A DNA stretch of 64,000 nucleotides from Mustelus asterias (lineage: Eukaryota), in assembly GCF_964213995.1 (NCBI RefSeq), contig NC_135819.1, forward strand, positions 62,000,001 to 62,064,000, written 5' to 3'. Shown here one piece after another: positions 42,480 to 51,613 of this stretch (the first letter of the stretch is position 1; each line of letters begins with the position of its first letter). The translations under genes and the position numbers were made by a program. The notes beneath the pieces are model-generated. The model worked only from the letters and a program-made list of their open reading frames with translations, did not search any database and was not told the origin of the DNA.

Positions 42480-42635
42480 ATGCCTCGCAATGTGGAGATC
42501 AAAGCTGCAGTCCGTGACAGGGATCAGCTGATATTAAATGCTAAAAGACTCAGCAAATCAGAGGGGGTTTTAATAATGCAAGAAGATACCTTCTTCAATG
42601 TTTTGAAAGGACGTCTTAAACTGCGCAATCTGAAG
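42480..42635 (+). CDS. CYTH gene coding exon 1
   Basis: MPRNVEIKAAVRDRDQLILNAKRLSKSEGVLIMQEDTFFNVLKGRLKLRNLK; acceptor tttcag at 42473, donor GTGAGT at 42636. Confidence 0.9.
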
Positions 42636-45600
42636 GTGAGTAAGATTGCAAAAGAGTATCCCAGCCTCCATTGGTGGGGATGCAGGAGGAGGTCAATTTG
42701 AGCAATCACACATTGGCGAGTCTGATCAGGACTAGTTCTGATTGTTTTTAATATCAGGGATTGTGACCCTGATTGGACCAAAGTGCTGGAAAATCTCAGC
42801 AGGTCTGGTCATGCCTGTGGAGGGAGAAACTGAGTTAATGTTTTGAGCCTATATGACTCTTCAGAGTTAAAGAGAGGGAGAAACGTGATGGACTTGTACA
42901 CTGTTTAAGAGGGATTCAAGCAGGTAGAGCAAAATAGTTAGGAGCTGAGAGATTTGACAAAGATGTCATGGGCACTATTCAAAGAGAATGTTAATGGTAG
43001 TGTTAAAAATGAAATAAAGTACTGATTGTAGCATAAAGGTAAGATGGCAGAAGAAGGGTCAGTGCTCTTTTAAAGCAAAACTTAACAGCAAGTGACAGAT
43101 GGTCCTGTGGACGAGAGGGGAGTGGTTGGGATTTTAAAAATTGGATTTTAAAGGGGGTCAAGGTGGAGGAGAGACTTCATGGTCTGAAGTTGTTTAACCT
43201 GATAAGTCCAGAAAACTGTGAAGTATCTAATCGGAGGAAGAGGTGCTGTTCCTCCAGTTTGCGTTGGGCTACACTGGAACATTGCAACAGACCACAGACG
43301 GTCTTGTGGACCTGAGAACAAGATGGCAAGTGAGTTAAAATGGAAAGTTGGGGTCATGCTTGCGGATTTGGGGAAAGTGTTGTACAAAGCAGTCATCCAG
43401 TCTGCATTTTGATCTCCCAATCTAGAGGACCAGTGACTACAGCAGACCAAATTAAAGAAAGTGCAAGTGAAACGCTGCTTTACCTGAAAGGAATGTTTGA
43501 GCCTTGGGCAGTGAGGAAGGAAGGGAGAAAAGGGGCAATGTTACAGCTTCTGTGATTATGTGGGAAGGAGCTGAGGAGTCGGGGGTGATGGAGGAGTGGA
43601 CCAGGTTGACGTGGAAGTAACAGTCCTGATGGAATGCTGACGGGGTGAGGGGAAGATGTGTTTGATGGTGACATCATGCTGGACTTGGTAGAAATGGTGG
43701 AGGATGATCCTTTGAATATGGTGGCGGATAGAGGACAAAATGAGGACAAGTAGTGGCACAGTGGTTAGCACTGCTGCCTCACAGCGCCAGGGACCCGGGT
43801 TCAATTCCCGGCTTGGGTCACTGTCTGTGTGGAGTCTACACATTCTCCCCATGTCTGCCTGGGTTTCCTCTGAGTGCTCCTGTTTCCTCCCACAGTCCAA
43901 AAGATGGGCTGGTTAGGTGCATTGGCCATGCTAAATTCTCCCTCAGTGTACCCGAACAGGTGTCAGAGTGCAGCGACTAGGGGATTTTCACAGTAACTTC
44001 ATTGCAGTGTTAATGTAATCCTATTTGTGATACTAATAAATAAACTTATCTTAGTTCTGGATACCGGGTTGGTAGACCATACGCAATTGTGTGCCTTATC
44101 AACCACAAGGGGTGGGGGAGGTGAAACCGTGGGACCCTCAGTTAGGAAAAGTAAGAATGTCAGAAGCAGCATTTTGGAAGGTTGCATCATCGGAGCAGAT
44201 GCAACAGGTGGAGAAACTGGGAGAATGGGTTGAGTCCTTCCAGTAAGTGGGGTATGAGAAGATATAGTTGAGGTAGCTGTAGGCGTCAGGGAGCTTGAGA
44301 TGAATATTTGTAGGCAGTTTATCACCAGAAATGGAGACAGTGAGGTCAAGAAAGGGAAATGCTGGTTATGGACTATAAAGGTGAGAGAGGAGTGTAAATT
44401 GGAAGCAAAATCAATGAATTTTTCCAGGTCCATATGAGAGCATGAAATGGCATGGATACAGTCATCAATGAACTGGAAAAGGAATTGTGGGAGGGGGCTT
44501 GAGTAGGACTGGAACAAGGAATATTCCACACACCCCACAAAAAGACGAGCATAACTGGAGCCTATACAGGTACCTGTAGCTACACTTTTTATTTGCAAGA
44601 TGTGAGACAAGTTAAAGGTGAAATTGTTGAGTGAGAAAACAGTTCAGCTAGGTGGAGGAGAGTGGTGGTGGACAGGGGTGGTTCGGACCTCGGCTCAAGT
44701 AAGAAATGGAGGCTCTTCAGACCATCCTATTGGAGAGGGAGATTAGGGGTGTAGAGCGATTGGACATGCATAGTGAAGAGCAAGTGGGATCAGGCTCCTA
44801 AAATTTGTTGATATTTCTGAGGGCATCAGAGGAATTGTGGATGTAGGTGAGAAGAGACTGGTCAAGAAGAGAGAGAATAGAGTCAAGATATGAAGAGATG
44901 AGTTCCATGAGGCAATAACAGGCTGACATGATGTGTCTACCAAGACAGTCTTGCTTGCAGATTTTGGAAAGGAGTTAGAAGTGGGCGATGTGGGGTTGTG
45001 GGACTATGAGGTTGGAGTCTGTGGAGGGAAAATCTCCAGGGGCAATGAGGTCAGTGGCAGTCCTGGAAACAATTGCTTAATGTTCAGTCGTGGGGTCATG
45101 CTGCTCGGTGGTGGAGCCATGGTTCTGGGTAGTTAGGAGGAAGTGTCTGAGTTGGCATTTACGCTCTGCGAGGTAGAGGTCAGTATGCCAGACAACAACA
45201 GCATCACCCTTGTCAGAAGGTTTGATAACAAAGTCAGGGTTGACCCTGAGAGAATGGAATGCAGCAAATTCCGAAGGAGTTGTTGGAGTTTGCATTCTTT
45301 AACATCTGAAAGGAAGAGAAAATGTTTTGTATTAAGTTGCTGGATGAGACAAAGAATGAAATGGAACTGGGGACAAGGACAGCTTTGAGATGGTGCTGCT
45401 CGACATTTGAAAGGCAGTGGCATAATCAGACAAAGTCAGCATGGGATTTACAAAAGGGAAATCATGCTTGACAACTGTATTGGAATTTTTTGAGGATGTA
45501 ACTAGTGGAGTTGACCAAGGAGAGCGAGTGGATATGGTTTATTTAGACTTTCAGAAGGCTTTTGACAAGGTCCCACATAACAGATTACTACGTAAGGTTA

Positions 45601-51600: not shown

Positions 51601-51613
51601 GACCAACAAATAG
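42480..51613 (+). CDS. CYTH-domain protein (class IV adenylate cyclase CyaB-like / triphosphate tunnel metalloenzyme), 171 aa, 4 coding exons
   Basis: Join 42480-42635, 48228-48329, 50420-50545 and 51482-51613; all introns phase 0, GT-AG. CYTH-type motifs NVEIKA, QEDTFF, GRLKLR, KKERWLY, VHVDQVQGLGSFMELEVV and GAYMDL; ends TAG with no frameshift. Confidence 0.9.
42780..45420 (-). mobile_element. Degenerate Penelope-like retroelement (RT and GIY-YIG remnants, terminal repeat)
   Basis: ATGTCIGSSYARLFVGCVE..FIDD and IKPSDKGDAVVV (PLE RT); frameshifted GIY-YIG-like segment about 43370-43450; terminal repeat at 42780-42870. Confidence 0.75.
43752..44047 (+). mobile_element. V-SINE inserted in a Penelope-like element
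   Basis: SINE head, V-domain and AATAAATAAAC tail. Confidence 0.85.
45435..46702 (+). mobile_element. CR1 LINE RT/3' fragment
   Basis: [41 protein letters not shown]. Confidence 0.9.
47565..47847. mobile_element. Penelope-derived fold-back element (inverted terminal-repeat pair) carrying hammerhead motifs
   Basis: About 117-bp arms at 47564-47680 and 47698-47814; 13-bp TSD CAATATATATCTA (47552-47564 and 47848-47860). Confidence 0.8.
48228..48329 (+). CDS. CYTH gene coding exon 2
   Basis: NGSGQLIFYQRADMDGPKLSDYSISPTADPDGLM; long pyrimidine tract plus CAG, donor GTGGGT. Confidence 0.88.
50420..50545 (+). CDS. CYTH gene coding exon 3
   Basis: KVLSDALGVKGVVKKERWLYMVGQTRVHVDQVQGLGSFMELE; TTTAG acceptor, GTGAGA donor (not in the ORF track). 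Confidence 0.9.
50616..50677. repeat. 62-bp near-perfect palindrome flanked by the direct repeat TCAAC
   Basis: TTCCATCCAGGTCCACATGGAGTAAAACT-GTAT-AGTTTTACTCCATGTGGACCTAGATGGAA. Confidence 0.85.
51482..51613 (+). CDS. CYTH gene coding exon 4 (terminal)
   Basis: VVLGEDQSLEEGEAIAQSLMEELGVKKEDLMTGAYMDLILTNK*; AAG acceptor at 51481. Confidence 0.88.
   Translation, partial: VVLGEDQSLEEGEAIAQSLMEELGVKKEDLMTGAYMDLILTNK

Follow-up and report, generated by a model that had tools for sequence, protein, structure and literature searches.

An intact, spliced CYTH/TTM gene next to choline kinase in the shark Mustelus asterias, and a widespread subfamily with distinct catalytic motifs

A 64,000-nucleotide stretch of the genome of the shark Mustelus asterias (RefSeq assembly GCF_964213995.1, contig NC_135819.1, positions 62,000,001 to 62,064,000 of the forward strand; here called the window and numbered from its first letter) carries an intact, spliced gene for a protein of the CYTH/TTM family. 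The original prediction, made from the letters alone, assembled four phase-0 exons into a protein of 171 amino acids, and the exons were found at the places it gave, with GT..AG borders and an unbroken frame (Table 1). By its sequence the shark protein can be assigned to a CYTH subfamily that is large and has catalytic motifs of its own. The gene is already in databases and what is new is its function, much as the prediction had supposed; uncharacterised homologues do occur across non-mammalian animals.

The lengths of the coding exons are all multiples of 3, the introns (5592, 2090 and 936 nt) are each GT..AG and in phase 0, and the spliced frame has 0 internal stops. Seven of the eight motifs quoted in the prediction stand unbroken at the expected places, and the eighth spans intron 3. 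An acceptor AG just 5' of 42474 leaves 6 nt of untranslated region (UTR) before the ATG at 42480. A RefSeq shark model described as 'uncharacterized' (P0001) equals the spliced product letter for letter; it may have been built on the same assembly and thus is not independent support for the gene model. Splicing was checked in the region 47900-52500, which covers introns 2 and 3, with four public runs from 3 studies, none on record as RNA. Contigs in all four runs skip intron 3 (50545/51482) at GT..AG. Intron 2 (48329/50420) is skipped in all four as well, exactly in two and with 1-2 differing letters at the joint in two runs from other organisms. The expectation that the exons are spliced together therefore holds for the two introns examined. 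Within this region unique intronic DNA has no run cover, and some intronic stretches are multi-copy; the repeats in the introns are presumably retroelements. Among 40 of the 76 rows taken from the runs there are 4 coding differences, of which 3 are silent. The 3' UTR may extend to about 54530, judging by the size of the run contigs. A protein search of the shark's own genome found this locus only, plus a 483-bp piece that is 77% identical and is likely a 5'-truncated retrocopy (Table 1). Pfam CYTH run over the same genome gave 0 matches, the exons being short, which is no evidence of absence; the shark THTPA was not located there either.

How does the transcript begin? Three run contigs carry 192-212 letters 5' of exon 2, i.e. 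30-50 beyond the exon 42474-42635. This surplus fits a short first exon that ends at the donor after 41719. The candidate exon has a weak similarity to the N-terminus of P0002, the shark entry chiPu_0020472 (score 45; 0 of 1000 shuffles reached 45, and the best scored 44). It contains an out-of-frame ATG at 41632, which opens an upstream reading frame of 28 codons. As it has no in-frame ATG, the 171-amino-acid form is the expected shark product. The in-frame reading of the candidate exon offers 81 open codons, is rich in Arg and includes GTG and CTG codons, and a non-AUG leader is possible.

Membership in the CYTH/TTM family, as originally proposed, is evident from Pfam CYTH (PF01928), which matches residues 3-163 with 74.5 bits against a cut-off of 23.2; exon 3 alone gives 29.4 bits. 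The zebrafish orthologue is si:ch211-156b7.4. Orthologues carrying this name or 'adenylate cyclase CyaB-like' are present in sharks, a ray, a chimaera, coelacanth, teleosts (Electrophorus included), amphibians, squamates, a turtle and two birds, house finch and kagu. Invertebrate homologues come from a tunicate, a priapulid, molluscs, echinoderms, an annelid, a rotifer and arthropods. Bacterial homologues are intron-less and 52-60% identical (549 of 601 stretches among the matches listed). Up to E 1e-30 there are 368 clusters at 50% identity, and an Atlas search returned CYTH clusters only.

The subfamily has been delimited before. Among the ten large clusters of the CYTH network of Vogt et al. 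(2021; PMC8233210, supplement), cluster 6 holds 2,136 sequences, including Drosophila CG14434, Caenorhabditis, Burkholderiaceae, three birds, Callorhinchus, si:ch211-156b7.4 entries and many bacteria. The entry chiPu_0020472, which is 88% identical to the M. asterias protein over 120 amino acids, is listed there (PMC8233210). By sequence, then, the M. asterias protein is placed in the cluster 6 subfamily (si:ch211-156b7.4/CG14434), from which it differs in nothing of substance. Table S1 of that paper gives no characterised member for cluster 6, and the term occurs 0 times in its main text (PMC8233210). The original prediction saw a prokaryote-like enzyme, one that resembles the CYTH proteins of prokaryotes more than it does THTPA. 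Sequence and structural comparisons agree, but the protein is no lone oddity: it comes from a large animal-plus-bacterial cluster that was already drawn, though not discussed.

The network table contains both cluster 6 and cluster 8 (THTPA) entries for sharks, and so separates shark THTPA from the orthologue of the protein described here (PMC8233210). That the protein does not group with THTPA thus accords with published data. The claim of a second vertebrate CYTH protein holds in that the lineage is separate, but it is not the sole other one in print. Jhc1, a THTPA-derived pseudoenzyme, has been described from an intron of ralgps1, which is another locus, and is reported as absent from invertebrates (bioRxiv 2026). 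In a FastTree phylogeny (195 rows and 170 columns, rooted at the midpoint, with no THTPA, CyaB, archaeal outgroup or partial rows) the vertebrates come out as one clade (1.0), with a value of about 0.78 for the grouping of the named animals. The nodes below these have weak support, and for this reason no donor or transfer is claimed.

The eight-stranded tunnel that the prediction anticipated is seen in an AlphaFold2 model made from a 38-row alignment (predicted local distance difference test, 90.5): eight antiparallel strands and a C-terminal plug helix. The best structural matches are archaeal cluster 3 TTM-fold proteins of Pyrococcus (Z 22.2, 22.2 and 20.3; TM score 0.84 to 2DC4). SaTTM, a proven triphosphatase, matches with Z 19.6 (2.2 A over 165 residues), class IV cyclases with 18.3-18.8, THTPA with 15.7 (3.3-3.6 A), YgiF with 15.1 and Vtc4 with 9.8. 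A second structural comparison agrees. SaTTM and the Pyrococcus proteins (cluster 3; 7NS9, 2DC4, 1YEM, 2EEN; Z 19.6-22.2) also give the best sequence match (E 3e-13), and they share with the shark protein its size, E-x-E, K-x-R and the pair formed by Phe and the plug-helix Tyr. Identity to them is 17-25%. The shark protein differs from them in having N-x-E-x-K for E-x-E-x-K, D-x-F for D-x-Y and R-x-K-x-R for small-x-R-x-R, in lacking the T-x-K lysine and in its additional fixed residues R63, K70, R112 and H114.

Motifs were read from an alignment of 384 homologues, all picked by similarity to the shark protein, and side chains were placed by alignment and by the order of the strands. The polar residues that hardly vary are N4, E6, K8, Q34, D36, R45, K47, R49, Y61, R63, K70, S72, K101, R103, R112, H114, D116, E126, E128, Y163 and D165. 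The N-x-E-x-K variant of the canonical E-x-E-x-K, which the prediction had picked out, is characteristic of the family, as Asn is found in 368 of the 370 rows with a residue there. E6 is kept in 367 of 371 rows and R45-x-K47-x-R49 in 367 of 384; Gly44 and the residues before it are not aromatic. E126 and E128 are present in 384 of 384 rows; for the 80 rows from genome loci the search pattern itself demanded both, and the other 304 were free of this constraint. Position 62, which aligns to the lysine that orients the first Glu, varies freely, and the usual Lys partner is gone. In strand 70-79, K70 and S72 are fixed and there is no fixed acidic residue. R112 aligns to the metal-2 His of class IV cyclases. 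The two best alignments put Lys47 in the place of the catalytic Arg, and a third (2een) shifts the register by two. By analogy, Y163 would be the plug-helix tyrosine, the counterpart of SaTTM Y168. As these changes are fixed from bacteria to birds, we infer from the alignment that they might represent a rebuilt and more basic terminal-phosphate/second-metal site, tuned to a particular substrate.

To which class of CYTH enzyme do these motifs point? By a published rule, a CYTH enzyme without the HF motif is a TTM or a thiamine triphosphatase (ThTPase), and E-x-E marks hydrolases. HF four residues before E-x-E-x-K is found in 0 of 369 rows, and the shark protein begins three residues before the motif. 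The gatekeeper, a small residue in cyclases, is basic (Lys47, or Arg45 in the alternative register), and strand 8 reads E-x-E, not the cyclase E-x-A. On these three features the motif rules exclude a class IV cyclase. TIGR00318 scores 51.9 bits (E 7.8e-14) against its cut-off of 57.95, and 3 homologues scanned score 44.4-56.9. 'CyaB-like' is accordingly to be taken as a name and not as a mark of cyclase identity. Compared with CyaB class IV cyclases (cluster 10; 3N0Y, 2ACA), the fold and the D-x-x-x-G-L-G-x-F hairpin are in common. The rules exclude THTPA too, as Arg45 takes the aromatic place of its W/Y-x-R-x-R motif. THTPA belongs to the same superfamily and coexists with the cluster 6 gene in sharks, but it gives no phmmer match to the shark protein at E up to 10. 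E-x-E present and HF absent is the pattern of SaTTM, YgiF and AtTTM3, and by the published scheme the shark protein would be a hydrolase-type TTM. In the changes set out above, however, it departs from every assayed hydrolase-type TTM.

Do the bacterial relatives offer a clue to function? The locus set is the best 80 of at least 601 stretches, and 71 of the 80 are labelled Chloroflexota. Their 726 open reading frames were clustered and 18 cluster representatives scanned. The commonest neighbours are TilS-like (25 loci), integrase/XerD-like (24), glyoxalase-family (22) and CoA-binding (17) proteins; with so many loci from one phylum, these are read as lineage synteny and not as a functional clue. 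No consistent fusion partner was found among 29 longer CYTH proteins. A second domain is present in 12 of them: GNAT in 4, and NUDIX, methyltransferase, PAS, exoribonuclease, thiolase, LbH, TrkA-N and EF-hand in 1 each.

We favour, with moderate confidence, a metal-dependent phosphohydrolase that cleaves the terminal phosphoanhydride of a tri- or short oligophosphate and does not make cyclic AMP (cAMP). The phosphate chain would be bound in the basic tunnel by K8, R45, K47, R49, K101 and R103, and E126 would hold metal 1 together with the substrate. The attack on the terminal phosphate would come from a water near E6/E128, and the C-terminal helix with Y163 would close the far end of the tunnel. 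The second-metal side would be remade, with Asn4 for the first Glu, the Lys partner lost, and R63, K70, R112 and H114 fixed. This remaking suggests that the preferred substrate is probably other than plain tripolyphosphate (PPPi), e.g. a phosphate chain of greater length or one particular phosphorylated metabolite. The 52-60% identity between bacteria and shark, together with about 20 fixed polar residues, argues for catalysis on one fixed substrate. Thiamine triphosphate (ThTP) is disfavoured, since fish carry the gene, Electrophorus included, yet are reported to have no measurable cytosolic ThTPase activity.

Several points weigh against a phosphohydrolase. Table S1 lists no assayed member of cluster 6 (PMC8233210). 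The first Glu of ExExK, a metal-2 ligand, is reported to be required for PPPi hydrolysis in AtTTM3, and here it is Asn. The Arg proposed to be catalytic is the one that opens the basic motif, and in the two best alignments a Lys stands there. SaTTM and the cyclases lie within a Z gap of less than 1, so the fold does not separate activities. Low cyclase activity has been reported in some plant TTMs that carry hydrolase motifs. Lastly, the bacterial neighbours and fusions (80 loci, 29 longer proteins) point to no substrate.

The remade second-metal side could also be read as a step part-way to the polyphosphate polymerase Vtc4, with phosphoryl transfer or processive turnover of polyphosphate on longer chains. 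In Vtc4, basic residues are reported to replace four glutamates, the acidic patch, of AtTTM3; here the first Glu is Asn, strand 70-79 has no conserved acid, K70, S72, R63 and R112 are near-invariant, and R112 takes the place of a cyclase metal-2 His. The acidic-patch residues E6 and E128 are retained, however, Vtc4 is structurally distant and the shark protein is a bare 171-residue domain, and we regard this as improbable. A role without catalysis, in binding phosphate or as a scaffold, on the lines of the CYTH-fold subunits of Mediator or of Jhc1, is a slightly poorer prospect. CYTH-fold non-enzymes do exist in vertebrates, and two residues reported as important to AtTTM3 catalysis are changed; but every basic residue of the tunnel is fixed from bacteria to birds, as are the metal ligands E6, E126 and E128, and the fixed changes resemble selection for a new substrate, not decay. 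A second ThTPase, or a role in choline or CDP-choline metabolism with the neighbour CHKB, seems very unlikely. The head-to-head arrangement with choline kinase across a CpG island speaks for the choline role, against which a scan of 18 neighbour clusters and 29 longer proteins turned up no choline-kinase family. A ThTPase would need the aromatic that stacks on the thiazolium, and Arg45 is found instead; sharks have a separate cluster 8 THTPA (PMC8233210), and fish tissue is reported to be without the activity. A class IV adenylyl cyclase, a third animal route to cAMP as the database names imply, is hardly credible, for although TIGR00318 gives a significant E value, class IV cyclases rank high in the structural comparison and the motifs diverge from standard hydrolases, the score is below the cut-off, the three diagnostic features are those of a non-cyclase and the network has the protein in cluster 6, not 10 (PMC8233210).

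The phosphohydrolase, if such it is, may work in more than one compartment. Among 193 entries with the N-terminal motif, 75 have an N-terminal extension of 20-110 residues, and 42 of these 75 pass a crude mitochondrial-leader rule (first 30 residues basic, Arg-containing and almost acid-free; no control set, kin species counted repeatedly). Entries with a leader are mostly percomorph fish, in which it is recognisably conserved; some extensions are probably annotation noise. CG14434 is among the mitochondrial candidates of an RNase H1 pull-down, where it is listed without a human orthologue. The 171-residue form is likely cytosolic, and a mitochondrial isoform is likely also made in some other animals.

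Table 1. Positions of the CYTH/TTM gene and associated features (window coordinates except in the last row)
Feature	Position	Strand	Remarks
Choline kinase exon 1	40468..40764	-	Head-to-head with the CYTH gene
CpG island with CCAAT and GC boxes	40765..41631		Between the two divergent genes
Candidate first (5' UTR) exon	41632..41719	+	Putative; counted from its out-of-frame ATG; GT donor after 41719
Coding exon 1	42480..42635	+	Residues 1-52; N4-x-E6-x-K8, Q34-x-D36-x-F38, R45-x-K47-x-R49
Coding exon 2	48228..48329	+	Residues 53-86; Y61-x-R63, P69-K70-x-S72; joined to exon 3 in four of four runs
Coding exon 3	50420..50545	+	Residues 87-128; K101-x-R103, R112-x-H114-x-D116, E126-x-E128
Coding exon 4	51482..51613	+	Residues 129-171 and stop; C-terminal helices with Y163-x-D165
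3' UTR	51614..52500	+	Run cover reaches the end of the examined stretch (52500)
Partial copy, 483 bp, 77% identical	contig C6, 84235700-84236150		End of exon 4 and 3' UTR

As predicted, the gene lies next to choline kinase, with exon 1 of the latter head-to-head (Table 1) and its start (40764) 1.7 kb from the CYTH ATG; further choline kinase exons are at window positions 1746-16079. The CpG island in between is likely a shared bidirectional promoter. MAPK8IP2 exons begin 18 kb downstream of the CYTH gene on the + strand. A second choline kinase is on contig C9. CHKB, MAPK8IP2, CPT1B, ARSA and SHANK3 are reported to be syntenic across vertebrates, human included, and by this synteny with MAPK8IP2 the choline kinase of the window is called CHKB; a reduced-sensitivity search did not find CPT1B on the same contig. 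In gar, sturgeon and one bird, gene models merge or confuse the CYTH gene with JIP2, which marks the adjacency to MAPK8IP2 as old. The CYTH-JIP2 'fusions' P0014 and P0023 are read as merged models of neighbouring genes. Acanthopterygian fish have choriogenin genes, chgL and chgHm, placed between chkb and mapk8ip2 (PMC12186722), so the interval has gained genes in some lineages.

Intron 1 of the CYTH gene holds an inverted repeat at 47564-47814 (117 nt, 97% perfect, 17-nt spacer), and similar words occur near 54786. We take it to resemble the ends of Penelope-type elements. Near-perfect inverted repeats like those of miniature inverted repeat transposable elements are found at 41904-42242 (44-nt arms, 251 nt apart) and 50616-50677 (a 29-nt hairpin). 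Long open frames of 189-644 codons are at 37929-39194 (-), 60628-62559 (-), 6386-9430 (+) and 45767-46516 (+), and presumably are open reading frames of long interspersed nuclear elements or other retroelements. The GC-rich long frame at 38-39 kb sits inside choline kinase intron 1.

What became of the gene in mammals? No mammal is among the named homologue matches listed or the 30 proteins looked up, a weak blank, as birds are also absent from the top 120 of one list. In the network table every one of the 17 Mammalia rows is a THTPA, with 16 assigned to cluster 8 and the other to cluster 64, and platypus is absent from the table (PMC8233210). The gene was likely lost in therian mammals. Cardiac phenotypes have been reported for the human and mouse long non-coding RNA (lncRNA) CHKB-DT, the CHKB divergent transcript. 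We take CHKB-DT to occupy the human position of the CYTH gene, between CHKB and MAPK8IP2. It is, by name, divergent to CHKB, as is the CYTH gene, but non-coding. Could it descend from the CYTH gene? This is proposed as a hypothesis. The supplements of two gene-to-lncRNA surveys (PMC5577775, PMC10195156) gave 0 matches to CHKB, 156b7, MAPK8IP2, CYTH or cyaB, a weak negative, as other identifiers may be used there. In its boldest form, and as a long shot, cluster 6 might be an ancient bacterial and animal enzyme class whose cation-rich tunnel turns over or builds chains of more than three phosphates (polyphosphate, nucleoside tetraphosphate), in the cytosol and, via a leader, in mitochondria; mammals would have lost the enzyme, and its transcription unit would survive as the heart-relevant CHKB-DT.

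No functional study of the family was found in the literature searched, which left out most subscription journals, and Iyer and Aravind (2002) may already note the animal clade. In the sources seen, CG14434 appears as a table entry or an RNA interference (RNAi) stock, and si:ch211-156b7.4 in one marker list. According to a 2021 review, all metazoans have one TTM protein, THTPA, and birds have none. Database records contradict it on both counts. Pigeon entries annotated thiamine triphosphatase-like stand in the small clusters 64 and 124 (PMC8233210, supplement 3, rows 3783 and 3885), and given these the reported loss of THTPA in birds may be an assembly artefact.

A second TTM lineage, more conserved and to all appearance intact, is thus present in flies, worms, molluscs, fish, reptiles and birds. 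Two of its catalytic positions carry fixed changes, which suggests a substrate that no CYTH enzyme is yet known to use. As the protein is soluble and of 19 kDa, and as fly RNAi stocks and a zebrafish gene exist, its function lends itself to direct test. Should the gene prove to be lost in mammals and linked to CHKB-DT, the locus would give a fresh example of an lncRNA that began as an enzyme gene, and this at a cardiomyopathy-linked site.

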